Positions 4,527 to 56,169 of a stretch of DNA of 64,000 bases are shown here, piece after piece. Every line of letters starts with the position of its first letter. Position 1 is the stretch's first letter. A model generated the notes under the pieces. That model made no database searches. It was not told where the DNA came from and saw only the letters and a list, made by a program, of their open reading frames with translations. Source of the DNA: Candidatus Levyibacteriota bacterium (GTDB lineage Bacteria > Patescibacteriota > Microgenomatia > Levybacterales > UBA12049). Location: the NCBI GenBank assembly GCA_963790825.1, contig CAWBPM010000002.1:4721-68720 (forward strand), written 5' to 3'. A program made the translations under genes and the position numbers.

Positions 4527-5744
4527 ATGTGGCAAGAGTTTAAAAATAGCTACCATCTGCTCCAAGGAGTAATTGCTAATCTGTACTATGGTTTTCCCGG
4601 TAAAGATATGACAATAATCGGTGTGACCGGAACTGATGGGAAAACGACAACTGTTAGCCTTATTTATCACATATTAGAGAGTTCGGGTAAAAAAGCATCA
4701 CTCCTTTCTACGCTGTCGGCAGTCATTAACGGTAAATCTTATGACACTGGCTTTCATGTCACGACTCCAAGCGCTTGGTCGGTGCAAAAATATTTAAAAA
4801 AAGCCAAAGATGCCGGTTCTGAATATTTTGTGATGGAAGTTACATCTCATGGTCTGGATCAAAACCGGGTATGGGGAATACCGTTCGCAATCGGCGTGTT
4901 AACAAATATTACTCATGAGCATCTGGATTACCATAAAACATACGAAAGGTATGTTTTAGCAAAAACTAAATTACTGAAAAATGCGCATATTGCGATTATT
5001 AACAAAGACGATGAAACCTATAAGAATTTAGAATCTATAATTCAAAATTCAAAATTCAAAGGAAAAAAATTGATTACCTATGGATTAAGCGACAAATCGG
5101 ACGTGAGTCCTAAAACATTTCCGTTTGAAACGAAGTTATTTGGCGAATTTAATCTCTACAATTGCCTGGCAGCGATTGGTACTTGTATGGAGCTTGGCAT
5201 TAGCGAAAAAGAAATCAGAACAGCAATTATTACGTTTACACCACCTGTGGGTAGAGAAGAAATTGTCTACGATAAAGATTTTAAAGTTATGATCGATTTC
5301 GCCCATACACCCAATAGTATTGAAAAATTACTGCAATCAATTAAAAAGGAAATGAAACCAAAAGGAAGGATTATTCATGTGTTTGGTAGTGCGGGACGAA
5401 GAGATTCATCAAAACGTTCGCTCATGGGAAAGGCATCAGATAAATATGCCGACATCATAATTTTGACTGCGGAAGATCCGCGGGATGAGAAGATTGAAGC
5501 AATTATAAAACAGATAAATGAAGGAATATTGGCTAAACATTTTGATGAGACACTTTTTGAAATACCTGATCGGCAAGAGGCGATTAATAAAGCAGTTGCG
5601 CTTGTGCAAAAAAATGATATTGTTGTCATCACCGGAAAAGGACACGAGCGGTCGTTGAATCTAGGTCATGGAGAAGTTCCCTGGAGTGACCATGAAGCTG
5701 TGAAAAAAGCATTAGAACTTCGAAACAATGATACAGAAAAATAA
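4527..5744 (+). CDS. murE: Mur ligase, UDP-MurNAc-L-Ala-D-Glu:diamino acid ligase (MurE-like, short N-terminal domain)
   Basis: P-loop GVTGTDGKTTT, a C-terminal DNPR-like EDPRDE motif and GKGHE followed by W-SD, as in MurE. The N-terminal UDP-binding domain is much shorter than usual. Confidence 0.65.
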   Translation: MWQEFKNSYHLLQGVIANLYYGFPGKDMTIIGVTGTDGKTTTVSLIYHILESSGKKASLLSTLSAVINGKSYDTGFHVTTPSAWSVQKYLKKAKDAGSEYFVMEVTSHGLDQNRVWGIPFAIGVLTNITHEHLDYHKTYERYVLAKTKLLKNAHIAIINKDDETYKNLESIIQNSKFKGKKLITYGLSDKSDVSPKTFPFETKLFGEFNLYNCLAAIGTCMELGISEKEIRTAIITFTPPVGREEIVYDKDFKVMIDFAHTPNSIEKLLQSIKKEMKPKGRIIHVFGSAGRRDSSKRSLMGKASDKYADIIILTAEDPRDEKIEAIIKQINEGILAKHFDETLFEIPDRQEAINKAVALVQKNDIVVITGKGHERSLNLGHGEVPWSDHEAVKKALELRNNDTEK

Positions 5745-6471
5745 CGCGGGTGTTTACCAATTTAGTGAATTTAGCTCATTGGGAATAGTTAATGGTTTTT
5801 CCTCAAAAACACTTGGCAATATGCGAACGCATGGAGAGAAAAAAACAAGCGATATTTCTCAATTTGCTCACGAATTAAAAATTGAACCGGGGCATATCGT
5901 TGGCATGAGTCAGGTACATGGTAACGCAGTTGAACTCGTAACGCAAAAACAAAGAGGAACAATTATCTTCAAATGCGACGGACTTGAAACACTGGAGAAG
6001 GAAACATTTCTCTACGCTACATTTGCCGACTGTGTACCCCTATTATTCTTTGATAAAGAAACGAGGTTAATTGGCCTCTGTCATGCCGGATGGCGGGGGA
6101 TTTACAAGGAAATTGTTCCACGAATGCTTATATCCATATTTGATCAGGGAGCAAAAGTAGAGAATGTACTTGTCGGCATTGGTCCATCGATCCGCTCATG
6201 CTGTTATGAAGTTTCAGAGGGACTCGCAAATGATTTTGCAGAAAAATTTAGAAAAGAAGAGAAGTACATTGTCAAAAGAGGGAATAAAATATTTTTAAGC
6301 TTACAAGATTTAATTTGCTTGCAGCTCTTAGGGCAAGGTGTTCTAAAAAAGCATATAATTAACAGTATGTTATGTACAAATGATCTGCAGTCAGAGTTTT
6401 ATTCATATCGTAATCGGACAGACAAAAACAAAAATGAAGTATTTGCAGCGATTATCGGAAGATATGCGTAA
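5728..6471 (+). CDS. pgeF: peptidoglycan editing factor PgeF (YfiH/DUF152 laccase-domain protein)
   Basis: ADCVP and CHAGWRG blocks plus a C-terminal Cys ligand region. It overlaps the murE stop and the murC start. Confidence 0.7.
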   Translation: MIQKNNAGVYQFSEFSSLGIVNGFSSKTLGNMRTHGEKKTSDISQFAHELKIEPGHIVGMSQVHGNAVELVTQKQRGTIIFKCDGLETLEKETFLYATFADCVPLLFFDKETRLIGLCHAGWRGIYKEIVPRMLISIFDQGAKVENVLVGIGPSIRSCCYEVSEGLANDFAEKFRKEEKYIVKRGNKIFLSLQDLICLQLLGQGVLKKHIINSMLCTNDLQSEFYSYRNRTDKNKNEVFAAIIGRYA

Positions 6472-7897
6472 TATACAATCAATTCATTTTGTCGGTTTAA
6501 AGGGCGTGGGTATGACACCTCTGGCAATTATTGCGAAAGAAGCAGGAATCAAAGTGACTGGGTCAGATCTTGGCAGGGAATTTATTACCGACATTTCATT
6601 AAAAAAAGCAGGAATCATTCCGTTTGTTGGTTTTTCTCCGGAGCATGTCGGAGATGTTGATTTGGTTATTACGACAGGCGCACACGGAGGATTTGATAAT
6701 GTTGAAGTAAAAAGAGCAAGACAGAAAAATATTCCGGTTTTGACGCAGGGAGAAGCAGTCGGAGAATTTATGAAGGGGGAAATTTTTGGCAGAAAATTCA
6801 GCGGAATCAGCGTGACCGGCTCACATGGAAAGACTACGACTACTGCAATGATTGCAACAATTCTTTCCGAAAATGGGTATCAGCCTTCCTTTTTAATCGG
6901 TACGGGAGACGTAACATCTCTCGGGAGCGCGGGGCGTTTCGGATCAGGCGAGTATTTTGTCGCGGAAGCTGATGAGTATATGACTGAACCTAAATATGAC
7001 TCAACAGCGAAACTTCTTTGGCAGCATCCGAAAATTGCGGTAATTACAAATATTGACCTCGATCATCCCGATGTCTATGCGAACATTGAGGGAGTGCGGG
7101 AAACGTTTTTACGATTTGCCAGGCAGTTAGCAAATGATGGAGTATTAGTTATTTACGGTGATGATTTACAGGCAAAAAAGCTACTATCTGACTATGAAGG
7201 TAAATCAGTCACATATGGATTTGGGAAAGAAAATGACTACATTTTACACTCGATTATTACAAAAAAATCGCACACAACATTTCAAGTTTTACATAACGGT
7301 AAGGAGTTAGGAGAATTTGTACTCAATATAAGCGGGGAGCATAATGTTTTAAATGCCACTGCTGCAATTATTGTTTCATTGCAAAGTGATTTAACCCTTA
7401 CAGAAATAAAAAATGGACTTTTGGCATTTCGAGGTTCAAAAAGAAGAATGGAATATCTAGGAAAACTGCAATCAGGAGCTCAACTCTTTGACGATTACGC
7501 GCACCATCCGACTGAAATTCGAAAAACTCTGCATGCATTTCGCGAAAAGTACAGAGAGAAAAAAATTATTTGTATTTTTCAACCGCACACCTATTCACGA
7601 ACAAAAAAACTATTCGATGAGTTTGTCGGTTCATTTTTTGACGTTGATGAAGTTATTCTAACCGACATCTATGCCTCACTCAGGGAAAAACCTGACACTT
7701 CTATTTCTTCGGAAATGCTCATAAACGAAATTGCAAAAAAACAAAAGAACGTTCTTTATCTGCCTAATTTAGTTGATGTGACGAATTACCTAAAAGAGGA
7801 ACAATTCGGCGAAAACACGGTGATTATTACAATGGGTGCCGGGGATATCTATACGATTTGTAAGGATTTAGAATTCAAAATAGATAATTGGAACTAA
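6434..7897 (+). CDS. murC: UDP-N-acetylmuramate--L-alanine ligase
   Basis: HFVGxxGxGM Rossmann N-terminus, P-loop GSHGKTTTT and a DHPD block. The listed ORF begins at 6380 inside pgeF; the start is probably 6434 or 6464. Confidence 0.8.
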   Translation: MKYLQRLSEDMRNIQSIHFVGLKGVGMTPLAIIAKEAGIKVTGSDLGREFITDISLKKAGIIPFVGFSPEHVGDVDLVITTGAHGGFDNVEVKRARQKNIPVLTQGEAVGEFMKGEIFGRKFSGISVTGSHGKTTTTAMIATILSENGYQPSFLIGTGDVTSLGSAGRFGSGEYFVAEADEYMTEPKYDSTAKLLWQHPKIAVITNIDLDHPDVYANIEGVRETFLRFARQLANDGVLVIYGDDLQAKKLLSDYEGKSVTYGFGKENDYILHSIITKKSHTTFQVLHNGKELGEFVLNISGEHNVLNATAAIIVSLQSDLTLTEIKNGLLAFRGSKRRMEYLGKLQSGAQLFDDYAHHPTEIRKTLHAFREKYREKKIICIFQPHTYSRTKKLFDEFVGSFFDVDEVILTDIYASLREKPDTSISSEMLINEIAKKQKNVLYLPNLVDVTNYLKEEQFGENTVIITMGAGDIYTICKDLEFKIDNWN

Positions 7898-8207
7898 TTG
7901 AGAAGTTAAAAGTCGCTAAATGTCATATATCTCTTCAAATTAATTTAAGAGCTATGCTGCAATAAAATATTCAGGATTCATATTATGCCAATCAATGTAG
8001 TTGTAGCGCTTAGCATCTTTATAAATAGTGTCTTATTTGTAATTTCGACCCCAAAAAGACCAAATAGTGTTTATTTTTACCAGGTACATCGCATTATAAA
8101 AAATTCTTACATAGCTCGTTAATGCCGGGCAAATTCAAATCATTTTTAAAGAATACCCCCTGCCTTGTTATTATCTGCATCTCTGTGCTATGATTTCCCA
8201 AATAACT

Positions 8208-9185
8208 ATGAGTAATATTTTACAAAAACTGGAAACAGAATTAGGCAAAAACAAAATCCATGTAAATGAACCGATGGTAGATCGAACGACATTTAAATCC
8301 GGGGGGAGCGCCGAGTTTTTTATCGAGATTGATCAAATAGCAGAATTAATCAAGGCAATTCGTTTGGCACAAAGTCTGGGTATGCAATTTTTCATCTTAG
8401 GATCGGGTACAACTTGTGTAATACCTGAAAAAGGTATCGCTGGGCTCGTTATTAAAAATAACTGCAGAAGATTTGAAATTATGAGCATGAAGGGCAGAAT
8501 TATAAGGGGCCAAATCGATATGAGTGGCGCCGCAGTATACACAGAAAGCGGAGTACTTACGAATCAATTGGTACGTTATGCAGCAGAACAGGGATTTGGC
8601 GGACTTGAACATTTTTTAGGACTTCCGGGAACAATAGGTGGTGCACTATTTGTGAATGCAAATTATCCCAAAAATAATGCAATGCTGGGAGATGCACTAA
8701 CAAGTGCAAAAATTCTAACTCGTGAAGGAGAGGTACAGGATGTTACGGGAAGCTATCTCCAGTTTTCTCCCGATTCAAGCTATTTACAAACATCGGGTGA
8801 AATACTCTTATCAGCAGTCTTTAAATTAACGCCAATGGAAACAAGCAAATTATGGGAAAGAGGAATGGAAGCAGCAGAATATCGAAGTAAAATGCTGCCA
8901 ATTGAGCACGTCGCCGGATACACGTATCGAAATATTTATATACCGGTAGGGATTCCTGAAAGAAAAAAATATACGTCCAATATTGAAACGATACTTAAAA
9001 AAGCAGGAGTGATTGGTATTCCAATTGCTAATGTCATATTATCCGAAAAGAATCCTAACTTTATCATCAGGATTGGATATGCTACATCAGAAGATCTTGA
9101 AGAGGTAGTTCGCAAAGTAAAAAAAGAAGTGTTAACGCAGTTCGGCTTCCAACTTCTCTATAAGCCATATACAATTGGAAATTAG
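8208..9185 (+). CDS. murB: UDP-N-acetylenolpyruvoylglucosamine reductase
   Basis: TTFKSGG and FxILGxGT FAD-binding blocks. The start is taken at MSNIL (8208); an alternative start is 8190. Confidence 0.75.
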   Translation: MSNILQKLETELGKNKIHVNEPMVDRTTFKSGGSAEFFIEIDQIAELIKAIRLAQSLGMQFFILGSGTTCVIPEKGIAGLVIKNNCRRFEIMSMKGRIIRGQIDMSGAAVYTESGVLTNQLVRYAAEQGFGGLEHFLGLPGTIGGALFVNANYPKNNAMLGDALTSAKILTREGEVQDVTGSYLQFSPDSSYLQTSGEILLSAVFKLTPMETSKLWERGMEAAEYRSKMLPIEHVAGYTYRNIYIPVGIPERKKYTSNIETILKKAGVIGIPIANVILSEKNPNFIIRIGYATSEDLEEVVRKVKKEVLTQFGFQLLYKPYTIGN

Positions 9186-9216: not shown

Positions 9217-10542
9217 ATGGAAAAATTTATTATTCGAGGTGGTAAAAAACTTTCAGGCAGTGTTTCCGTATCGGGAGCAAAAAACGTTTCTTTAAAAACA
9301 CTCGTCGCAGCATGTCTGACCGAAGAAGAAGTAATTATTCACAATATCCCTCTCATTTCGGATTTTTTAGTCATGGTTGATATTATTAAAGAACTCGGGG
9401 GAACTGTTCGAATAGAGGACCATACAGCCCGGATACAAATTAAAAAATTCAGTCAACACAGAATTTCCTTAGATGACGCGTCGCATATCAGGACATCTTC
9501 GATGTTCATTTCTCCACTTCTTGTGCGGTGCGGAGAAGCAATTATTCCAAACCCTGGAGGTTGCAGGATCGGTGCGCGTCCGATTGATAGGATAATCGAA
9601 GGGCTTGAGAAAATGGGAGCAGATATCGTCTATCACAGTGAAGATGGTTACTTCCATGCAAAAACCTCAGGACTACACGCCGCAACCTATCATTTTGAAA
9701 AAAGTACTCATACGGGAACAGAGACACTCCTTATTGCTGCGGTTTTAGCAAAAGGGAAAACAATTTTAGAAAACGCCGCCCTAGAACCCGAAATTGACGA
9801 ACTTATTGATCTGCTTTGCCAAATGGGAGCCAAGATTAAGAGAACAAAAGAGCGGCGAATCGAGATTGATGGAGTTAGTAGTCTTCATGGTACTGAATTT
9901 ACCATTCAGCCTGACAGAAATGAGATTGTTACGTTTGCTATAGCAGCTCTCATGACGGAGGGGGATATTTTTGTCAAAGGGGCGAAAAAAGCAGCAATTG
10001 GTGCATTTATCAATACCCTTGAAAAAACAGGAGGAGGATATGAGGAAAAAAACGGAGGACTGCGATTTTTTTATAAAGGTCCACTTAAACCAACTACGAT
10101 TATTACAAGTCCTCATCCCGGATTTATGACTGATTGGCATGCGCCATGGGCAGTTCTGATGACAAAAGCAGACGGTGTATCCACGCTTCACGAAACAGTG
10201 TTTGAAAATAAATTCGGGTATGTCGAGGAACTGCGAAAGATGGGAGCCAAAATTACGCTCTTCAATCCTGAAATAACAGATCCCAAAGCTGTCTATAACT
10301 TTAATATTGAAGATGATAATGGTTATAAACACGCAGCGAAAATTTATGGGAATACCAGGCTACATGAAGCGGTGATGACAATTTCCGATCTGCGTGCAGG
10401 AGCATCCTTAGTTCTGGCAGCATTGTCAGCTCGGGGGGAAAGTATCATTCACGGAGTAGCGCTGGTAGATAGGGGGTATGAGAAATTTGATAAACGATTA
10501 CAACATTTAGGTGCAGATATTGAAAGGATAAAAGATGAATAA
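9217..10542 (+). CDS. murA: UDP-N-acetylglucosamine 1-carboxyvinyltransferase
   Basis: Active-site loop PGGCRIGARPID (catalytic Cys) and EPT-family blocks. Length is 441 aa. Confidence 0.85.
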   Translation: MEKFIIRGGKKLSGSVSVSGAKNVSLKTLVAACLTEEEVIIHNIPLISDFLVMVDIIKELGGTVRIEDHTARIQIKKFSQHRISLDDASHIRTSSMFISPLLVRCGEAIIPNPGGCRIGARPIDRIIEGLEKMGADIVYHSEDGYFHAKTSGLHAATYHFEKSTHTGTETLLIAAVLAKGKTILENAALEPEIDELIDLLCQMGAKIKRTKERRIEIDGVSSLHGTEFTIQPDRNEIVTFAIAALMTEGDIFVKGAKKAAIGAFINTLEKTGGGYEEKNGGLRFFYKGPLKPTTIITSPHPGFMTDWHAPWAVLMTKADGVSTLHETVFENKFGYVEELRKMGAKITLFNPEITDPKAVYNFNIEDDNGYKHAAKIYGNTRLHEAVMTISDLRAGASLVLAALSARGESIIHGVALVDRGYEKFDKRLQHLGADIERIKDE

Positions 10543-11308
10543 TACTGCAACTACTACTTTTACATCACTTGGCTCTATCATCCTCGCCGGTGGGAAAGGA
10601 AAACGAATGGGTCTTACGGAAACGAATAAAGTTACGCTTATTCTGGGAAATAAACCGATCATTCAACACATCGTTCATTTCATGAAAAACATCGGACTTG
10701 AAAAAATTATAGTAGTTGTGGGGCACGCAAAAGAATCAGTAATGAATACATTGCAGGGAGAACGGGTATTATTTGCCGAACAAACAGAACAACTCGGTAC
10801 CGGACATGCAGTTGCGATTGCACTGGAAAAGTTAGCAAAAGAAGTTACCGATGTCTTTGTCGTGTATGGCGATGACGCGGTTATTTATATTGACGATCAT
10901 ATTTCAATTATCCGATCACTATTCGAAAAACATTTTCAAATGCACGCCGCATTAACGTTTCTTACCATTAATGTTTCAAACCCACAAGGGCTTGGAAGAA
11001 TTGTTCGAGACGTAAACGACGAAGTTCTGGCAATTGTTGAAGAAAAGGACGCAACTAATGCGCAGAGGAAAATTTGTGAAATTAATCCCGGATGTTTTGT
11101 ATTTAATGTCGAATTCTTGAAGAATTATCTTCCCAAAGTTAAAAAAAGTCCGGTTACAGGAGAGTATTATTTAACCAGTCTTATTGATATGGCAATTGAA
11201 AATAAGGAAATTGTAGAAACAGTAAAGGGTGGACGGCTAGCTTGGCGGGGTGTAAATACACCCGATGAGCTAAAAGAAGCAGAGCAATTCTTTACGAAAG
11301 GTTATTAA
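10535..11308 (+). CDS. sugar-1-phosphate nucleotidyltransferase (GlmU N-terminal-like, no hexapeptide acetyltransferase domain)
   Basis: LAGGKGKRM signature followed by GTGHA. At 257 aa it ends before any left-handed beta-helix repeats would begin. Confidence 0.6.
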   Translation: MNNTATTTFTSLGSIILAGGKGKRMGLTETNKVTLILGNKPIIQHIVHFMKNIGLEKIIVVVGHAKESVMNTLQGERVLFAEQTEQLGTGHAVAIALEKLAKEVTDVFVVYGDDAVIYIDDHISIIRSLFEKHFQMHAALTFLTINVSNPQGLGRIVRDVNDEVLAIVEEKDATNAQRKICEINPGCFVFNVEFLKNYLPKVKKSPVTGEYYLTSLIDMAIENKEIVETVKGGRLAWRGVNTPDELKEAEQFFTKGY

Positions 11309-11311
11309 TGT

Positions 11312-11758
11312 ATGCAAGGTAATATCGTGGTTGAACAAGTGAAGACATTTTCTCCGCAGATTGCAGAATCAATCCGTAAACTCACCAAGCAACTAGATGA
11401 TCAATTTGAACCGTTATCCGATGAAGAGATAGAAGTAATGATAACATCGTCTTGCAATCATCTATTTGTCGCTCGTCACTCTGACAGTGACCTAATTATA
11501 GGAATGGTAACATTAATCCTATACAGAATACCTTATACAAAAAAAGGGATTGTCGAAGATTTAGTGGTAGATACATCATTTCGGGGACAAGGAATTGCCA
11601 AGAAGCTAATTAGTAGAGTTCTTAAAAAGGCCCAGGAAGAAGAAGTATATTATGTAGATTTAACCTCACAACCAATGCGTGAATCAGCCAATATTCTCTA
11701 CAAACAACTGGGGTTTGAGGAACGGAATACCAATTCCTATCGACTGAAATTACGATAA
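11312..11758 (+). CDS. GNAT family N-acetyltransferase (candidate glucosamine-phosphate N-acetyltransferase by context)
   Basis: Motif A RGQGIAKKLISRVL. Length is 148 aa. The proposed function is inferred from operon context only. Confidence 0.5.
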   Translation: MQGNIVVEQVKTFSPQIAESIRKLTKQLDDQFEPLSDEEIEVMITSSCNHLFVARHSDSDLIIGMVTLILYRIPYTKKGIVEDLVVDTSFRGQGIAKKLISRVLKKAQEEEVYYVDLTSQPMRESANILYKQLGFEERNTNSYRLKLR

Positions 11759-12234
11759 TGGACATGAGAAAAGTTGTTTTATTTGATATAGACTATACAC
11801 TTTTTGACACAGATACATTTAAAAAGTCAGGCTTGGAGATGTATGCGCTTTACGAAGAAGTGATACCTGTTCTGGTAGAAATTGGGAAAATAGCAAAGTT
11901 GGGTATTTTCTCTGAAGGTGATGAGGATTTTCAACAAACAAAGCTCATAAAAACCAATTTACAGAAGTATTTTCCAAAAGAATATATCCATATCGCTCAG
12001 AAAAAAACAGATATCTTGGAAAAAATGTTAAAAGAATATACAGACCAACAGCTTTTTCTTGTTGATGATAAGTTACCTGTGCTGTATGACGCGAGCAGGA
12101 AACGGCCGGGACTATATACTATCTGGATTAAGCGCGGAAAATATGCTACAGTGCAGCAGGAAATTGCTGGATTTATACCCAACGCGACAATATTGAATTT
12201 GAAGGAAATAATCCCGATTATTACAGGTATCTAA
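11758..12234 (+). CDS. small HAD-superfamily hydrolase
   Basis: Motif I FDIDYTLFD (DxDxT), a S/T motif GIFSEG, and a DD motif LVDDK. Confidence 0.55.
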   Translation: MDMRKVVLFDIDYTLFDTDTFKKSGLEMYALYEEVIPVLVEIGKIAKLGIFSEGDEDFQQTKLIKTNLQKYFPKEYIHIAQKKTDILEKMLKEYTDQQLFLVDDKLPVLYDASRKRPGLYTIWIKRGKYATVQQEIAGFIPNATILNLKEIIPIITGI

Positions 12235-12284
12235 TATGTATGGAATTTTTGGAGCGGAGCGAATGAAATGAGTGAGCTCGCTTG

Positions 12285-12388
12285 CAAGCAAAGCGCAGAC
12301 AAGCGTGGGACGGAAGACGAAGTCTGAGTCCGCCTGCGATCCTGAGTTTCGAAGGATCAACAGGGGGTGGAGATGGGGAAGTAAAATT
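12285..12388 (+). ncRNA. glmS ribozyme: candidate glmS ribozyme / structured GC-rich leader of glmS
   Basis: A GC-rich non-coding stretch lies immediately 5' of the GlmS Met-Cys start. Its order A|GCGC ... GACGAAG ... CGAAGGAUCAACAGGGGGUGGAG parallels the B. subtilis glmS leader as I recall it (GACGAGG ... AAGGAU ... CAAGGGGGUGA), giving matches GACGARG, AAGGAU and AGGGGGUG. An ORF translation of this region would add 39 residues ahead of the obligatory Cys2 nucleophile, which is implausible. Confidence 0.5.
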
Positions 12389-14149
12389 ATGTGTGGAATT
12401 TTCGGATACGTCGGAAAACAGAATGATGCTGCCCAAATAATCCTTAAGGGACTAAAACTTCTCGAATACAGAGGTTATGATTCGTGGGGAATCGCGGTTA
12501 AAGAAGCAGGCAAATTAACCTTAGAAAAGCACGTTGGGAAAATTGGTAATGCCGAGACGGTCCTTCCTCAAAGTAGGCTGGGAATTGGACATACCAGATG
12601 GGCAACACATGGGGGCGTAACTGTTGCTAACGCGCATCCGCACCTGGATTGTACGAAAACAATTGCAGTTGTCCATAATGGTATTATTGAGAACTTTCAA
12701 GAATTAAAAGACGATTTGCTGAAAAAAGGACATGTATTTCTTTCAGAAACTGATACAGAAATATTACCGCATTTGATTGAAGAAAATTTAAAGAAAGAAG
12801 GTTTTGCCTCTGCAGTCAGAGATACGTTTAATACACTTCACGGTATGAACGCAATAGTCGCCCTCTTTGCTCCCTCCCAGGAAATTATTGCTGCAAAAAA
12901 CGGATCACCAATGGTGGTGGGAATTGGAAAAAATGAATTATTTGTTGCTTCGGATGTCTCAGGAATTATTCAACATACCCGCGACGTTTTATTTCTCAAA
13001 GATCACGAAATGGTAATTTTAGGTAAAGACATGCAACTGCTTAAACTTCCAAATGGTGAAAAATTATCGCCAAATATTGAAACAGCTGACTGGAAAATAG
13101 AAGACAGCCAAAAAGATGATTTCCCACATTTTATGATTAAGGAAATTAACGAGCAGCCGAGAATTATGCGCAATATTGCCGGAAATTACCTAGACCAAAT
13201 CACAAGAATAAGTGAGACGATAAAATCTTCCAGAGGAACTTTTTTCATTGGTGCAGGTACGGCATTTCATGCTTGTCTGGCCGGAACATATCTTTTTTCC
13301 AAGATTTCACATGTTCACGTGAATACTGCTGTAGCATCGGAATTTAATTATCTGGAGGATTTTCTAACCAAGGAGAGTTTGGTTATTGCACTGTCTCAGT
13401 CGGGAGAAACGATCGATGTCATTGAACCGTTGAATAGAGCGAGAGAAAAAGGCAGCAGGATTGTGGCGATTGTGAATGCGCTTGGATCGAGTATTTATCG
13501 GATGTCTGATGATAGACTTCTTCTTAATGCCGGTACTGAGAAAGCTGTTGCCTCGACTAAAGCGTATATTGCAAAGCTAACTGTCTTACTACTTCTCTCA
13601 TACGCGATGATAGGAAAAGTAAATGAGGCGGCTGCTCTTGTTATGCGGGCGGCGGATGAAATAGAGAAACTATTAGAAGAGGAGAGTCTGGAAAAGCTGA
13701 AAAATATTGTCAAAGTACTCAGTAAATCTGAACACATCTATGTTATTGGCCGAGGGATGTCATATGCATCCTCACTTGAAGCAGCCCTGAAGATAAAGGA
13801 AGTAAGCTACATTCATACCGAAGGACTGGCAGGCGGAGAACTAAAGCACGGAACCATCGCATTAATTTCCGAGGGTACTCCTTGCATTGTTTTTGCACCG
13901 TCCGATGAAACCTATGATGCTATGATTTCAAATGCCACAGAAATTAAAGCTCGTGGAGGAATTATCATCGGCATTGGTACGAAAAAATCTGCAGTATTTG
14001 ACTACTGGATAGAAATTGCAAACTTAAAAGATGCAAATATTCTCAGTCAAATTATTCCCGCTCAGCTCTTAGCCTACTACTTAGCGACTCGAAAAGGTCT
14101 TGATCCGGACAAACCAAGAAATCTAGCCAAAAGTGTTACGGTAAAGTGA
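12389..14149 (+). CDS. glmS: glutamine--fructose-6-phosphate aminotransferase (isomerizing)
   Basis: MCGIFGY N-terminal nucleophile, two SIS domains and a C-terminal KSVTVK... ending. GGAG lies 14 nt upstream. The listed ORF start at 12272 is an in-frame read-through of the leader. Confidence 0.9.
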   Translation: MCGIFGYVGKQNDAAQIILKGLKLLEYRGYDSWGIAVKEAGKLTLEKHVGKIGNAETVLPQSRLGIGHTRWATHGGVTVANAHPHLDCTKTIAVVHNGIIENFQELKDDLLKKGHVFLSETDTEILPHLIEENLKKEGFASAVRDTFNTLHGMNAIVALFAPSQEIIAAKNGSPMVVGIGKNELFVASDVSGIIQHTRDVLFLKDHEMVILGKDMQLLKLPNGEKLSPNIETADWKIEDSQKDDFPHFMIKEINEQPRIMRNIAGNYLDQITRISETIKSSRGTFFIGAGTAFHACLAGTYLFSKISHVHVNTAVASEFNYLEDFLTKESLVIALSQSGETIDVIEPLNRAREKGSRIVAIVNALGSSIYRMSDDRLLLNAGTEKAVASTKAYIAKLTVLLLLSYAMIGKVNEAAALVMRAADEIEKLLEEESLEKLKNIVKVLSKSEHIYVIGRGMSYASSLEAALKIKEVSYIHTEGLAGGELKHGTIALISEGTPCIVFAPSDETYDAMISNATEIKARGGIIIGIGTKKSAVFDYWIEIANLKDANILSQIIPAQLLAYYLATRKGLDPDKPRNLAKSVTVK

Positions 14150-14191: not shown

Positions 14192-15385
14192 ATGAGTACG
14201 CTTGTTACTTTCATTAGTATTGCGTTTTTTATATGGATACTGCGAAGTATTTTGTTTTGGGTAACCATTTGGCAAAAAAGCAATTACCACCTGCGTGAAT
14301 TTTTTACCTTTGAAAAACGTTATCATCTACGGTCGAAAATTTCCGTCTATTTCTCTTACTTAAAATTATTATTAATCGCCGGATATGGCATCGTTGTTTT
14401 TCACGATAACTTACTTCTTTCTTATCAAATCCTGGTAACAAGTGTAATCTTGCTGCAATTACTTTTCATATTTCGCGAGATAATTTCCGGGACATTTACT
14501 TTCCCCAAACTTACACTGAAAACCATAACGATTTCTTTGCTTACCTTCATTATTATTTATGGTTTGTTCTCTCTCTATTTAGTTGAACAATTTTTCTTCT
14601 TTTTACTTCTTGACAGAATGGTTCCAATTCTTGTCATGATGTTTGTGTTTCTCTTCTCATTCCCATCTGAGATATATGAAGATGTAGAACTGGAACAAGC
14701 GGCAAAAAGAATCCAAAAAAATCCGGATTTAATACGAGTACTAATCGTTGGAGAAGGGTTTGGGATAAGAGAATATCTGACCCAAATGCTGGAAACAAAA
14801 TTCTCAATTTTATCACTGTCATCAAAAGAAAACTCTCTGCTTGATATAGCGCGAATTATTTTAAAAAAAATAGATATATCTCTTAAAATTTGTCTTATCG
14901 AAACGAAAACAGACCCTAAAGATACTCTAACTGCGTTAATAGAAATTCTTAATCCGCAAATCGTCGTTTTCGCAGATTGCAGAACAGAAAAAGAGTATGA
15001 TGAGTTTAAAGTACTGCTCCGCACATTACCTCGCAATAGTGAGATTCTCTTTAATGGGACGAATACTAGACTTTTTAAGCTCTATATCAAAACACGTCGG
15101 TTTTTAGGCAAACAGAGAAACATTATTTATACATTTACCGAGGACAAAACAAAAGCTATGTATGCATTACCCGCAAAAGTTCCCGGGCTTTTCGCATATC
15201 GCTTTCTGAATAAAAAAAGGAAAACATACGTAAAAATGGTAAAGAACACTAAAAGTACCCAATTAATATTACCAAGTAGCGACAGGGAGGAGGTGGAAAA
15301 GATACTTCCGGTTATTTTTATCGCAGACTATCTGGGAATCAGCCGGGAAGAGATTGAAAAAAATATAACCTCACTACTATCCTAA
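14192..15385 (+). CDS. hypothetical membrane protein (about 5 N-terminal TM helices plus a ~230 aa soluble C-terminal domain)
   Basis: Hydrophobic N-terminal third; no recognisable motifs. It sits between glmS and mraY, where murF is usually found. Confidence 0.5.
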   Translation: MSTLVTFISIAFFIWILRSILFWVTIWQKSNYHLREFFTFEKRYHLRSKISVYFSYLKLLLIAGYGIVVFHDNLLLSYQILVTSVILLQLLFIFREIISGTFTFPKLTLKTITISLLTFIIIYGLFSLYLVEQFFFFLLLDRMVPILVMMFVFLFSFPSEIYEDVELEQAAKRIQKNPDLIRVLIVGEGFGIREYLTQMLETKFSILSLSSKENSLLDIARIILKKIDISLKICLIETKTDPKDTLTALIEILNPQIVVFADCRTEKEYDEFKVLLRTLPRNSEILFNGTNTRLFKLYIKTRRFLGKQRNIIYTFTEDKTKAMYALPAKVPGLFAYRFLNKKRKTYVKMVKNTKSTQLILPSSDREEVEKILPVIFIADYLGISREEIEKNITSLLS

Positions 15386-52832: not shown

Positions 52833-53312
52833 ATGAGTGACGCTATAAAAATTATAAATAATTGTAAAATAGGTAAAAATACGAAAGTATATAATTTCGC
52901 TAATCTTTATGGTTGCGAAATAGGAGAGAATTGTAGAATTGGTTCATTTGTTGAAATCCAAAAGGGAGTCAAAATAGGCAATAGAGTAAAAATAGAGTCT
53001 CATACTTTTATTTGTGAAGGCGTGACGATTGAAGATGACGTTTTTATCGGACACCATGTAGTTTTTATTAACGATAAATATCCCCATGCGAGTAAACGTT
53101 CAAAAGAATTACAAACTGAAGAAGATTGGAAAATACTCCGGACTCTAATTGGTAAAGGTGCATCTATCGGTTCAAATGCTACCATCCTTGGCGGAATAAC
53201 GATTAGCGATTATGCTATGGTTGGAGCAGGTTCCGTTGTTACGAAAGATATTCTGCCATATACAGTTGTTATCGGTAATCCCGCGAAAATAATACGTAAA
53301 TTACATCCTTAA
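52833..53312 (+). CDS. hexapeptide-repeat (left-handed beta-helix) sugar N-acetyltransferase
   Basis: Repeated [LIV]G.... hexapeptides (IGENCRIGSFVEI, IGNRVKIES, IGSNATILGGITI). Length is 159 aa. Confidence 0.7.
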   Translation: MSDAIKIINNCKIGKNTKVYNFANLYGCEIGENCRIGSFVEIQKGVKIGNRVKIESHTFICEGVTIEDDVFIGHHVVFINDKYPHASKRSKELQTEEDWKILRTLIGKGASIGSNATILGGITISDYAMVGAGSVVTKDILPYTVVIGNPAKIIRKLHP

Positions 53313-53999
53313 GCGGAGAAAAACAATATCCCTGAGTGATGAAACCACTAATTTGAGATTACCCCCCGAACTTTTTCTTTTTATCCGTTTGCTGAAATCA
53401 ATAGGTACACTTGCGATTTTCTTTCCATTTTTAGCCGCGCGAATAATCATTTCGGCTTCAAAAAAAACGCTTTTTGACACAAGCGGGAATGAATGAATTA
53501 GTTCTCGCTTGATAACTTTTATGCTCCCTGCATCAATAGTTCTAGTTTGAAATAGGATATATGGTAAAAAATTATAAAAAAATGAAACAATTTTTCTATA
53601 GAACGAATAATCGGAATAGGTTCTTTTACCAATCACAATATCTGCTTGATTTTTATCTGCAAAAAGTAACAATTTTTTGATATCTTGAGGATTCCAATCT
53701 CCATCTACACTAAAAAGAACGATATAAGCATATCCGGCAGTTTTATAAAGGTTTAATATTGTTTTTGCAATTCCTTGATTTTGTTTATTGAAGATAAGTT
53801 TAAAACAACGATTATACATAAAATGCTTTTTTAAGATTGAACGTGAACCATCGGTACTTTTATCATCACAAACAATTATTTCGTATTTAGCGCATATACT
53901 CTTCATGACCTTTTCGCATTCTTTTAGTTGTAAAACTGCAGTTTTTTCATTATTAAAAAGGGGAATGACGAGCGATGCTTCAGATAAAAAAGATTTCAT
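53301..53999 (-). CDS. GT2 family glycosyltransferase
   Basis: IPLFNNEK and CDDKSTDGS blocks. Confidence 0.65.
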   Translation of the reverse strand: MKSFLSEASLVIPLFNNEKTAVLQLKECEKVMKSICAKYEIIVCDDKSTDGSRSILKKHFMYNRCFKLIFNKQNQGIAKTILNLYKTAGYAYIVLFSVDGDWNPQDIKKLLLFADKNQADIVIGKRTYSDYSFYRKIVSFFYNFLPYILFQTRTIDAGSIKVIKRELIHSFPLVSKSVFFEAEMIIRAAKNGKKIASVPIDFSKRIKRKSSGGNLKLVVSSLRDIVFLRLRM

Positions 54000-54997
54000 A
54001 GAATGATTTCCCGGTGGGTTATAAGTGCTTGCTCTATTTTTTCCAGTAAAGTTACTACTTTTAATCCTTCCTGCCCATCAGTCAAGGGCTCTTTATTTGC
54101 TGCGATACACTCTATGAAATGTATAAGCTCGGTAGATAACGCTTCTTTTTGTTCCAAGTGGGGAATAATAATATCTCCACTTCTATACGCAGGAGAAAAA
54201 GGAGTGACAGACAGAGGAGAAGGAATAACCCCCTTATCATAAAGTTTTATTTTTTCAGTCGGCTCAATATCATTATATACAATCATTTTTTTACTTCCTC
54301 CGATAAGAATAGAACGAATTTTTACCGGAGAGAGCCAACTTACATGAATGTGAGTTGATATATTATTTTCAAGTTGTAAAAAAATATGCGCAACTTCATA
54401 CTGATTACCAATGAATGCAGATCCAAAAGCTTGAATAGAAATAGGCCTTTCAGGGAAAAGGTGAGTAATAATTGACAGGTCGTGAGGGGCTAAATCCCAG
54501 ATAACGCTTGCATCCTTTTGAATTATTCCCAGATTAATTCTTGTACTGTCATAATAATAAATTTTTCCGAGTTCGTTATGAGTAATAAATTGTTTGATTT
54601 TTTTTATTGTCTCAGAATACACAAAGGTATGCCCAACCATTAATAATTTTCTCTGTTTTTTGGCAAGTTTAATTAACATACCTGCCTCATCGCTGGTTGC
54701 TGTCATCGGTTTCTCAATCAGCACATGCTTTTTTGCTTGTATTGCTTTCTTAGCTAGTTTAAAGTGAGTCTTAATTGGAGTTGCTATAATTACCGCATCA
54801 ATTGCAGAATTATTTAAAATTAAGGAATAATGTTGTGCCATCGATACATTCGGAAAGTCTTTTTTCAAGGCCTGCAGCCTTTCTTTTTTAATTTCGCAAC
54901 CATAAACTTGTGAAACCTGCGGAATATTAAGTAAATTTCTTACCAAATTCGGTCCCCAATATCCGAGTCCTATAACCGCAACATTTATTTTTTTCAT
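53996..54997 (-). CDS. Gfo/Idh/MocA family NAD-dependent sugar oxidoreductase (WbpB-like)
   Basis: VAVIGLGYWGPN Rossmann N-terminus and a EKP block. Transcribed divergently from the adjacent aminotransferase. Confidence 0.7.
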   Translation of the reverse strand: MKKINVAVIGLGYWGPNLVRNLLNIPQVSQVYGCEIKKERLQALKKDFPNVSMAQHYSLILNNSAIDAVIIATPIKTHFKLAKKAIQAKKHVLIEKPMTATSDEAGMLIKLAKKQRKLLMVGHTFVYSETIKKIKQFITHNELGKIYYYDSTRINLGIIQKDASVIWDLAPHDLSIITHLFPERPISIQAFGSAFIGNQYEVAHIFLQLENNISTHIHVSWLSPVKIRSILIGGSKKMIVYNDIEPTEKIKLYDKGVIPSPLSVTPFSPAYRSGDIIIPHLEQKEALSTELIHFIECIAANKEPLTDGQEGLKVVTLLEKIEQALITHREIIL

Positions 54998-55029
54998 TGT
55001 ATGGTAAAATTGTAACCGTAGTATACACT

Positions 55030-56169
55030 ATGCAAAATAATTTTGGAATAAAAATAAAAGTTCCATTTACCGATCTATCGGTAAAAGATCAGAAAATATT
55101 TTTAAAGAAAATAAATACTGTATTGAAAAGAGGAAATTTTGTTTTAGGCAAAGAAGTTGACATGTTTGAGCGGGAGTTCGCAGCGTATTTAGAGGTAAAG
55201 TACTGTGTCGGAGTGGCGTCGGGAACCGACGCAATTTTACTTGCGCTCAGAGCTTTAGATATTTCTCAGGACGATGAAGTCATTGTTCCCGCATTTACCT
55301 TTGTAGCAAGTGCGACACCAATTCTTATGCTTGGTGCTCGGGCGGTTTTTGTTGACATAAAACCAAATTTACCAATTATTGATGAGAACAAAGTTGAAAA
55401 AGCAATAACTAAAAAAACAAAGGCAATTATCGCTGTACATTTATATGGTTATCCATGCAATTTGCAGGAACTGCAATCAATTGCAAAAAAACACAGAATA
55501 GCTTTAGTAGAAGATGCATCTCAAGCGCACGGTTCGTTATATAAGAACAAAAAAATCGGATCTTTCGGAGATATCGCAACATTTTCTTTTTATCCAACGA
55601 AAAATCTTGGAGCTTTTGGTGATGCAGGTGCTATCGTGACATCCGACAAATTGTTCTATGAAAAATTACTTCTGCTTCGCAATCATGGACAGGCAACAAA
55701 ATATGCGTATAAAATTCTTGGATATAACAGTAGACTTGATTCTTTGCAGGCGGGAGTTCTTAGGCTAAAACTAAAATCTCTTGACACGGAAAACAGAAAG
55801 AAAAAAATCCTCGTGAATAAATACGTATCTAAATTATCTAATTTACCAACAAAAATATGTTTTATAGATAATAGAGTTGAAGCGCAGCCAGCCTTTCATC
55901 TTTTTGTCATTCGGACAAAAGAAAGAGATCGTCTTAAAGAATTTTTGCAAAAACGAGGAATTGTATGTGCAATTCACTACCCGACTGCGCTTCCCGACGA
56001 GTCAATTTTTAATTATAAAAAAAATAATAAATATTATCTCAACGCCAGGAGATTTGCCTCATCCGTTTTATCGCTTCCTCTGTTTCCCGGTATGTCTGAG
56101 AGACAACTGCAATTTGTTACGGATTCGATTATTGCATTCCTTCAAAATATTAAAACAGCATTAGTATAG
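55030..56169 (+). CDS. DegT/DnrJ/EryC1/StrS family PLP-dependent sugar aminotransferase (WbpE-like)
   Basis: The listed ORF uses a TTG at 54997; ATG at 55030 is preferred. Typical DegT blocks (GKEV..FE.EFA, SFYPTKNLGAFGDAGAI with the PLP Lys). Confidence 0.8.
   Translation: MQNNFGIKIKVPFTDLSVKDQKIFLKKINTVLKRGNFVLGKEVDMFEREFAAYLEVKYCVGVASGTDAILLALRALDISQDDEVIVPAFTFVASATPILMLGARAVFVDIKPNLPIIDENKVEKAITKKTKAIIAVHLYGYPCNLQELQSIAKKHRIALVEDASQAHGSLYKNKKIGSFGDIATFSFYPTKNLGAFGDAGAIVTSDKLFYEKLLLLRNHGQATKYAYKILGYNSRLDSLQAGVLRLKLKSLDTENRKKKILVNKYVSKLSNLPTKICFIDNRVEAQPAFHLFVIRTKERDRLKEFLQKRGIVCAIHYPTALPDESIFNYKKNNKYYLNARRFASSVLSLPLFPGMSERQLQFVTDSIIAFLQNIKTALV

Follow-up and report, generated by a model that had tools for sequence, protein, structure and literature searches.

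Introduction

GlmU, an antibiotic target, is treated as the universal, essential and bifunctional enzyme by which bacteria make UDP-N-acetylglucosamine (UDP-GlcNAc). Here we describe a 64,000-nt stretch of DNA from a Candidatus Levyibacteriota bacterium (contig CAWBPM010000002.1; hereafter the window, whose positions are used throughout, on the + strand unless stated). Inside its division/cell-wall (dcw) cluster, this low-G+C organism (~38% G+C) carries a module of four genes, which encode a short GlmU-type uridylyltransferase, a GNAT acetyltransferase, a small HAD-superfamily protein and GlmS. We propose that the module is probably the UDP-GlcNAc supply line of the Patescibacteria cell-wall cluster, built on a ‘split GlmU’ in which the GNAT protein acts as the acetyltransferase.

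Several described systems are close to this arrangement. Archaeal-type GlmU enzymes act on glucosamine 1-phosphate (GlcN-1-P). The apicomplexan GNA1, an independently evolved GNAT that acetylates glucosamine 6-phosphate (GlcN-6-P), shows that recruitment of GNATs to this reaction has happened on more than one occasion (PMC5838249, PMC7587441). A recent preprint reports that GlmU is not universal and that some bacteria carry its N-terminal domain only, and infers for these bacteria a glucosamine-phosphate acetyltransferase of unidentified kind (Fong et al., bioRxiv 2026, 10.64898/2026.06.23.733835). Most Parcubacteria are reported to carry an archaeal-type phosphoglucosamine mutase (PMC4508563). 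According to one preprint, Saccharibacteria strain TM7x encodes no UDP-GlcNAc synthesis, and its UDP-GlcNAc must come from the host (10.1101/2022.03.25.485537). A literature search found no description of the Patescibacteria GlmU/GNAT arrangement.

Results

A stand-alone uridylyltransferase opens the module

The four genes, taken from the ORF (open reading frame) list, lie where the initial annotation had placed them, and the features of the module are as follows.

10535-11308, + strand: stand-alone GlmU-type N-acetylglucosamine-1-phosphate uridylyltransferase, 257 aa (TIGR01173, PDB matches)
11312-11758, + strand: GNAT N-acetyltransferase, 148 aa (Pfam Acetyltransf_1/7/10)
11758-12234, + strand: cap-less HAD-superfamily phosphotransferase, 158 aa (motifs, alignment, AlphaFold2 model)
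12235-12388, + strand: non-coding spacer, 154 nt (no Rfam match; bounded by direct repeats)
12389-14149, + strand: glmS, glutamine--fructose-6-phosphate aminotransferase, 586 aa (TIGR01135, NF001484, Pfam)

The uridylyltransferase gene overlaps the preceding murA by 8 nt and is followed after a 3-nt gap by the GNAT gene, whose stop codon shares one base with the start codon of the HAD gene (TAATG). These junction sequences predict that the module genes are translationally coupled. A consensus scan called no terminator-like site between the module genes; the sole + strand call in 10535-14149 fell inside the glmS coding sequence. All four products were singletons in the protein collection searched, and all were encoded on a single contig of 751,017 bp. 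Their closest named relatives were from Patescibacteria, mostly from Candidatus Levybacteria.

The uridylyltransferase matched the glmU model TIGR01173 at 196 bits, over model positions 4-237 of 452 only (whole-protein cut-off, 367 bits). RmlA and GalU models scored the same protein at 37-71 bits. Its 17 top PDB matches were all GlmU N-domains (residues ~5-245, 102-134 bits), and the next family followed at 35 bits. Aligned to the GlmU structures, it keeps LAxGxGxRM, NKV, QxEQLGTGHA, YGD, EEKDA, EINPG, GEYY and GVN. Because the model scores and the PDB ranking both place GlmU far above other families, we assign the protein as a predicted GlmU-type N-acetylglucosamine 1-phosphate (GlcNAc-1-P) uridylyltransferase without the hexapeptide domain. 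The initial annotation had allowed that it might prove to be a glucose-1-phosphate thymidylyl- or uridylyltransferase of the RmlA/GalU type, and these scores exclude that identity.

The protein ends near GlmU model position ~237, ahead of the hexapeptide, or left-handed beta-helix (LbH), domain, in agreement with the earlier observation that it stops before any hexapeptide repeats; the 3-nt gap to the GNAT gene leaves no space for such a domain. We identified more than 1,811 homologues at E ≤ 1e-10. The best 120 of these were all ~250 aa long and 59-69% identical, which argues that the short protein is not a local truncation. The short form of GlmU is the norm in Patescibacteria.

Two unrelated folds occupy the acetyltransferase slot

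We collected related loci from three sources: look-ups around homologues of the GNAT and of the uridylyltransferase, a scan of GTDB species genomes with the GNAT alignment, and a metagenome scan with the uridylyltransferase alignment. All three sources gave the same shared architecture, murC-(murB)-murA-uridylyltransferase-GNAT-HAD-(glmS)-(murF)-mraY-ftsW-murG. It was present in Levybacteria, Saccharimonadales and other Patescibacteria, at GNAT identities of 38-51%. The murA-uridylyltransferase order was kept in all related loci. Four loci had uridylyltransferase-GNAT-HAD-mraY with no glmS (L007, L034, L036, L042), among them the Saccharimonadales locus L007, and two had uridylyltransferase-GNAT-glmS with no HAD gene (L009, L035). 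In one further variant, GNAT-HAD-glmS stood with a CofD/YvcK-family gene outside the dcw cluster and without the uridylyltransferase (L004). This synteny, conserved across many Patescibacteria, bears out the earlier proposal of an amino-sugar cassette inside the cell-wall cluster.

We then asked which gene follows the short uridylyltransferase. The census used the uridylyltransferase-anchored subset of 27 non-redundant loci, which we regard as unbiased (L035 corrected). A GNAT gene followed in 14/27 loci and an archaeal-GlmU-type LbH acetyltransferase in 4/27 (L045, L046, L055, L058); in 9/27 the next gene was neither of these (mraY or yvcK). L046 encodes the uridylyltransferase, a 215-aa LbH protein, a short HAD protein and GlmS. 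L058 encodes the uridylyltransferase, a small ORF, a 191-aa LbH protein and GlmS, and L055 opens likewise. Against the archaeal-type GlmU model TIGR03992, the 215-aa protein scored 165 bits and the 191-aa protein 135 bits, in both cases over the C-terminal half of the model, which represents the acetyltransferase. In L045 (99-2103), the short uridylyltransferase (249 aa) is followed by a 421-aa bifunctional archaeal-type nucleotidyltransferase/acetyltransferase that matched TIGR03992 end to end (266 bits), and then by a long HAD protein.

The GNAT fold and the GlmU-type beta-helix fold alternate in one slot of otherwise equivalent operons, a pattern that we read from gene order as in-place non-orthologous displacement. 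Because an unrelated LbH acetyltransferase fills the same slot in relatives, the GNAT protein would supply the lost acetyltransferase activity of GlmU; this is the strongest evidence available. The GNAT protein is therefore a strong candidate for the missing N-acetyltransferase, with a glucosamine phosphate as its predicted acceptor.

The GNAT protein resembles GNA1 in fold and in some aligned residues

The gene at 11312-11758, 3 nt after the uridylyltransferase stop codon, encodes a GNAT acetyltransferase as first described, with matches to Pfam Acetyltransf_1, Acetyltransf_7 and Acetyltransf_10. Its AlphaFold2 model (predicted local distance difference test score, pLDDT, 91) has the GNAT fold of eukaryotic GNA1, and Foldseek matched it to hundreds of GNATs. 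The top TM-scores (0.77-0.82) and the lowest root-mean-square deviations (2.2-2.3 Å) were those of the Cryptosporidium parvum, Trypanosoma brucei and Arabidopsis thaliana GNA1 structures. When the family profile was compared with the PDB, C. parvum GNA1 (6yug) was matched over its full length at 50 bits.

Several active-site residues of GNA1 also have aligned counterparts, and these shared features are generic and partial. The near-invariant Glu82-Asp83 of the family aligns with the Glu-Asp of canonical GNA1; this pair occurs in other GNATs too, for example SSAT, and so is not diagnostic of GNA1. Tyr130, conserved across the family, aligns with the catalytic Tyr of GNA1. Arg144, also conserved in the family, corresponds to the C-terminal Arg of GNA1, which is Arg164 in C. 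elegans and Arg141 in C. parvum, and Thr118 corresponds to C. parvum Thr117. In C. elegans GNA1, Glu104 and Asp105 contact the 3-OH and 4-OH of the sugar and the oxyanion, Tyr149 is catalytic, and Lys136 and Arg164 bind the 6-phosphate (PMC3413214). Arg141 of the C. parvum enzyme is essential and contacts the 6-phosphate (PMC7587441). The GNAT family has further conserved arginines of its own, with Arg72 (in YRIPY) nearly invariant and Arg123 (in TSxPxR) invariant.

A number of observations weigh against a hexosamine-phosphate acetyltransferase. The NCBIfam matches were generic and all far below their cut-offs (ArsN1a 36, RimI 32 and AAC(3)-I 31 bits). The best PDB match of the family profile was a Bacillus halodurans GNAT of unknown function (1z4e, 66 bits). 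Canonical GNA1s scored 30-37 bits, below 1z4e, a two-domain N-terminal acetyltransferase (6wqc, 51 bits), a polyamine acetyltransferase (48 bits) and Naa30 (46 bits), and in the range of RimI (33.5 bits). The position of the phosphate-binding Lys of canonical GNA1 is variable in the family (Tyr/Thr/Ser/His/Lys), and Arg113 and His81 of C. parvum GNA1 are not conserved. The family is large (494 representative clusters at E ≤ 1e-30), and its members in Acidimicrobiales, Thermoleophilia, Bacteroidales and Akkermansiaceae have no hexosamine genes nearby. Because members outside Patescibacteria sit in unrelated contexts, the family is not intrinsically a hexosamine enzyme. Finally, one third of the short-uridylyltransferase loci (9/27) have no adjacent acetyltransferase at all.

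Three of these points, namely the generic profile matches, the unrelated contexts outside Patescibacteria (NUDIX, thioesterase, sulfatase, FeoB) and the nine loci, also speak for a different explanation. Here the GNAT would be a bystander in the dcw operon, either a RimI-like protein or a detoxifying small-molecule acetyltransferase, and the real acetyltransferase would be encoded elsewhere. We consider this quite unlikely. The GNAT keeps its position between the uridylyltransferase and HAD/glmS across lineages despite only 38-50% identity, and its gene either overlaps or directly adjoins those on both sides. Other relatives have a GlmU-type LbH acetyltransferase in its slot, and its linkage to glmS persists away from the dcw cluster (L004).

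The initial annotation had likened the route to that of eukaryotes and had pointed to a comparison of the GNAT with GNA1 and other GNAT subfamilies. This comparison gave no specific affinity for GNA1 over other GNATs. A yeast GNA1 query retrieved GNA1 structures at E ≤ 3e-16 and, beyond these, one other GNAT within 1e-5. The window protein was 16-17% identical to the yeast, A. thaliana and Aspergillus fumigatus GNA1s and ~23% identical to that of C. parvum. By these comparisons it is not an orthologue of eukaryotic GNA1; plausibly, it has a GNA1-like mode of action but belongs outside the GNA1 family. Synteny and the LbH swap in the slot support the view that the GNAT very probably substitutes for the acetyltransferase domain of GlmU; a specific sequence kinship with GNA1 is not supported.

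Relatives outside Patescibacteria gave no lead to function, as their neighbours are too heterogeneous (NUDIX, thioesterase, FeoB, sulfatase, GH2). They keep the motif DLTSRPSR...LY..LGF..R.TNVYR. In two relatives from Acidimicrobiales (L018, 9222-10456; L031, 1828-3185), the GNAT gene directly follows a NUDIX hydrolase gene with a Nudix_N domain.

Proposed pathway and acceptor

In the pathway that we propose, GlmS would make GlcN-6-P. The GNAT protein would use acetyl-CoA to N-acetylate a glucosamine phosphate, which in ordinary bacteria is the task of GlmU, in its hexapeptide (LbH) half, and a 6-to-1 phosphomutase step would lie in between. The uridylyltransferase would then convert GlcNAc-1-P and UTP to UDP-GlcNAc, which would feed MurA and MurG, encoded alongside.

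We consider GlcN-6-P and GlcN-1-P about equally probable as acceptors, and UDP-GlcN less likely. GlcN-1-P is favoured on parsimony because the GNAT swaps with a beta-helix enzyme of the GlcN-1-P type. GlcN-6-P is favoured because of the GNA1-like pocket residues and because recruitment of a GNAT to act on GlcN-6-P has occurred twice (PMC5838249). The LbH swap argues, if anything, for the bacterial/archaeal order of steps over a eukaryote-like order.

Two other components were considered. The window encodes an LbH acetyltransferase at 52833-53312, which we rejected as the missing C-terminal domain of GlmU: its best scores were of the NeuD/PglB type and it lies beside nucleotide-sugar genes, and we judge it to be a nucleotide-sugar-modifying enzyme. 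For a mutase-free route through an anomeric kinase (APH/NahK/AmgK-like), the sole APH-like gene seen, in L005, was weakly homoserine-kinase-like. This gene (L005, 14992-15969) encodes an APH-fold kinase and ends a dcw cluster that has the short uridylyltransferase but no acetyltransferase, HAD or glmS.

The LbH gene at 52833-53312 is part of a second, UDP-GlcNAc-consuming cluster (52833-56169). It encodes the 159-aa LbH acetyltransferase (NeuD/PglB/VioB-like), a DegT/PseC-type aminotransferase and, on the - strand, a Gfo/Idh/MocA oxidoreductase similar to UDP-GlcNAc 3-dehydrogenase. The cluster has the appearance of a pathway for making a 2,3-diacetamido sugar.

A cap-less HAD protein accompanies the acetyltransferase

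The 158-aa HAD protein has all four motifs of the superfamily, DxDxT at Asp10/Asp12 (with Thr14), Ser52, Lys83 and Asp103-Asp104, and these residues showed little or no variation in sets of 12 and 59 homologues. Its AlphaFold2 model (pLDDT 93) consists of the Rossmannoid core alone, with no cap. The four motifs and the core are those of HAD superfamily phosphotransferases, and the minimal HAD enzyme that the initial annotation had placed after the GNAT was confirmed. Relatives occur in a long form (211-235 aa) and a short form (156-164 aa), to which the window protein belongs. The short form lacks ~65 residues between motifs I and II that make up the C1 cap, which the long forms keep; the catalytic motifs are complete in both. 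The short-form clade has at least 232 proteins, the best 120 of which were 46-60% identical to the window protein. Few carry a source name, which in most cases is ‘hypothetical protein’ or an unspecific label as a HAD phosphatase.

The best match by both sequence and structure was 2p11, of unknown function. Weaker matches were NANP, phosphoglycolate phosphatase, YfnB, beta-phosphoglucomutase, a HAD pyrophosphatase and the cap-less MDP-1 and KdsC. The match of the HAD profile to beta-phosphoglucomutase was marginal (E ~1e-3) and covered the N-terminal part only. The window protein has neither the C1 cap nor the specific similarity that characterize mutases of the beta-phosphoglucomutase type.

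Among loci with enough sequence, the HAD gene followed the acetyltransferase gene in 18/20 GNAT loci and in 2/3 LbH loci. It was absent from loci with the uridylyltransferase only. We also found an in-frame fusion of the C-terminal end of an LbH acetyltransferase with a short HAD protein of the window family (P0249, 233 aa). It lies on a 1,205-bp metagenome contig and is cut at the contig edge, with its N-terminus beyond it.

We see about an even chance that the HAD protein is a hexosamine-phosphate phosphatase that acts as an overflow valve or repairs a dead-end sugar phosphate. It could, for example, remove N-acetylglucosamine 6-phosphate or excess GlcN-6-P in organisms without NagA/NagB. 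A role as the phosphomutase of the pathway is doubtful, and some other role is unlikely.

If it were the phosphomutase, the HAD protein would be a new kind of hexosamine phosphomutase, and the four genes would form a self-contained cassette, as the initial annotation had it, with a GlmM-independent pathway from fructose 6-phosphate to UDP-GlcNAc. The steps would run glmS, HAD, acetyltransferase, uridylyltransferase, the reverse of the gene order. We regard this as possible but improbable. The acetyltransferase, HAD and glmS genes travel as a trio that matches in number the three steps from fructose 6-phosphate to GlcNAc-1-P, and this trio is absent together from the uridylyltransferase-only loci and present without the uridylyltransferase in L004. 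The HAD gene follows either type of acetyltransferase at the frequencies given above, is fused in frame to an LbH partner in P0249, and keeps its catalytic motifs in at least 232 homologues. The superfamily includes beta-phosphoglucomutase, weakly matched here, and eukaryotic phosphomannomutase is another HAD-fold mutase. Moreover, neither the 64-kb window nor any of 113 related loci contained an alpha-D-phosphohexomutase signature ((T/S)xSHNP, DGDGDR); glmM is normally unlinked to glmU, so its absence from the loci says little.

Other observations oppose a mutase. The window protein and its ~158-aa clade lack the cap that known HAD mutases use to enclose their substrate, and the closest neighbours in structure and sequence (2p11, NANP, phosphoglycolate phosphatase, MDP-1) either are phosphatases or have no known function. 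Cassettes without HAD exist (L009, L035, L058). A conventional mutase need not be lacking, given the archaeal-type phosphoglucosamine mutase reported for most Parcubacteria (PMC4508563).

The most far-reaching version of this alternative seems rather unlikely to us. In it, GNAT-HAD-glmS and the uridylyltransferase would make up a full UDP-GlcNAc pathway that needs neither GlmM nor the C-terminal domain of GlmU. The GNAT would be a third independent recruit to glucosamine-phosphate N-acetylation, and the often cap-less HAD protein would be a new class of hexosamine phosphomutase, possibly capped by its acetyltransferase partner. If the pathway were self-contained, many Patescibacteria scored as unable to make UDP-GlcNAc would be self-sufficient; if the HAD protein were a mutase, it would be a new enzyme class at a central step of cell-wall precursor synthesis. 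We continue to prefer the split GlmU with the GNAT as its acetyltransferase.

The glmS start and the spacer upstream

The module ends with glmS, as first annotated. The product scored 637 bits against TIGR01135 (cut-off 418) and 653 bits against NF001484, and matched Pfam GATase_6/7 and two SIS domains. It begins MCGIFGY and has the N-terminal Cys nucleophile, the class-II amidotransferase domain and the two SIS domains of GlmS. The ORF finder had started the gene at a GTG (12272). We rejected this start in favour of ATG 12389, because the catalytic Cys must directly follow the initiator Met. With glmS starting at 12389, 154 nt after the HAD stop codon are therefore non-coding.

The initial annotation had described this stretch as a ribozyme-like leader, and our data do not support that description. 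We found no match to the glmS ribozyme (RF00234) at the Rfam gathering score across the whole window, none at E ≤ 10 in 12100-12500 (401 nt, lax filters), and none in 11 related loci. The folding energy of the spacer was no better than that of shuffled sequences (z = +0.35). The HAD-glmS distance in relatives is 1-40 nt, or the genes overlap, and the 154-nt spacer is specific to this genome.

Imperfect 19-nt direct repeats flank the spacer (12235-12253 and 12388-12406). The upstream copy duplicates the first six glmS codons and opens an 11-codon decoy ORF (MYGIFGAERMK*) that starts 1 nt past the HAD stop codon. Because of the flanking repeats and the tight HAD-glmS junction in relatives, we read the spacer as a lineage-specific insertion (153 nt) or duplication scar in a formerly tight junction and not as a ribozyme. 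A non-coding stretch whose G+C content exceeds that of the surrounding sequence, placed immediately before glmS, might suggest a divergent glmS ribozyme or other cis-regulatory RNA. This explanation is very improbable, given the empty Rfam searches, the shuffle-like minimum free energy, the absence of the spacer from relatives and the repeats that mark it as an insertion. We also rejected a repeated or mobile element: no second copy of the spacer was present in the window or in loci L001-L004, and a 27-mer from it had no exact match in viral contigs.

Neighbouring genes and side observations

The module lies among the following dcw genes.

4527-5744, + strand: murE
5728-6471, + strand: pgeF
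6380-7897, + strand: murC
8190-9185, + strand: murB
9217-10542, + strand: murA, the first consumer of UDP-GlcNAc (ORF list)
14192-15385, + strand: divergent murF-like gene
Downstream of the murF-like gene, in this order: mraY, ftsW, murG, ftsA, ftsZ

At 292 nt, the A+T-rich murC-murB gap (7898-8189) is unusually long for a cluster whose genes are otherwise closely spaced, and two promoter-like sites with TG extensions are present at 8145-8194. These sites may mark the start of a murB-murA-uridylyltransferase-GNAT-HAD transcription unit.

The product at the murF position (14192-15385) is 397 aa long, its N-terminal ~170 aa are hydrophobic, and MurF models matched it at 20 bits. The murF homologue of L006 (530 aa) scored 229 bits to MurF and likewise has an N-terminal extension. 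The window may hold a truncated or degenerate copy; alternatively, its product may be a very divergent MurF with a membrane anchor.

In two related loci, a YvcK/GlmR-type UDP-GlcNAc-binding protein is encoded between the short uridylyltransferase and mraY (L043, 6441-7427, TIGR01826 at 339 bits; L044). In L004, a CofD-family gene (4947-5945) follows glmS. These YvcK/CofD neighbours suggest a GlmR-like control of GlmS in Patescibacteria. In L005, murG (10910-12012) is represented by two ORF calls of 179 and 161 aa, through what may be either a frameshift or a genuine split. Among more distant short-uridylyltransferase loci (L062, L065, L071-L073, L076), MurC-similar ORFs are 666-765 aa long, ~200-300 aa above the length of MurC, and may be fusion proteins.

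Comparison with known systems

What is new here is the split GlmU with a GNAT, or a beta-helix protein, as its acetyltransferase, together with the associated HAD protein. The pathway itself is known, and the module is not a new kind of system.

With the bifunctional GlmU of the E. coli type, the window shares an orthologous uridylyltransferase domain with aligned signature residues and the linkage to glmS, which is also seen in canonical glmU-glmS loci (L078-L109). It differs in that the window uridylyltransferase lacks the C-terminal LbH domain and the trimerising helical arm, and a separate GNAT-fold gene follows.

With the eukaryotic pathway (GFA1, GNA1, AGM1, UAP1), it shares a stand-alone GNAT acetylation that is separate from uridylylation. 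The GNAT protein superposes best on GNA1 enzymes, whose fold it shares, and it has counterparts of their Glu-Asp pair, catalytic Tyr and C-terminal Arg. However, its identity to GNA1 is low (16-17%), the PDB profile scores for GNA1 are no better than those for Naa30 or polyamine acetyltransferases, and the phosphate-binding Lys is not conserved. The window uridylyltransferase is of the GlmU and not the UAP1 type, and the cassette has no AGM1 homologue. Of the GNATs with a known small-molecule function, C. parvum GNA1 (6yug) is the best match (50 bits over the full length, TM-scores 0.80/0.82), and its Thr117, Tyr127 and Arg141 correspond to Thr118, Tyr130 and Arg144 of the window protein. Its His81, Arg113 and Glu119 are not conserved, and identity is ~23%; at the His81 position the window protein has Asp, as in canonical GNA1.

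The archaeal-type GlmU (TIGR03992; similar to Sulfolobus tokodaii ST0452) is represented by split C-half LbH proteins in the GNAT position of L046 and L058, with HAD and glmS also present in L046. Its beta-helix fold is unrelated to GNAT.

The HAD protein shares its core and four motifs with HAD sugar-phosphate enzymes; NANP and beta-phosphoglucomutase are weak profile matches, and MDP-1 and KdsC are cap-less structural neighbours. It differs from them in having no family-level match and in having lost the C1 cap, which is retained in its long-form relatives. A precedent for a cap-less HAD protein inside a sugar-nucleotide pathway is GmhB, which takes part in heptose nucleotide-sugar synthesis.

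The closest recent report differs in its subject. The NagU of Staphylococcus aureus is a UAP1-like uridyltransferase of Staphylococcaceae, the PVC group and Clostridia, and the available portion of that preprint names no acetyltransferase and makes no mention of Patescibacteria (10.64898/2026.06.23.733835). For bacteria that have only the uridylyltransferase half of GlmU, the window and ~20 related loci name a concrete acetyltransferase candidate. Annotation pipelines that demand a full-length GlmU could miss such a split pathway and so overstate the host dependence of Patescibacteria.

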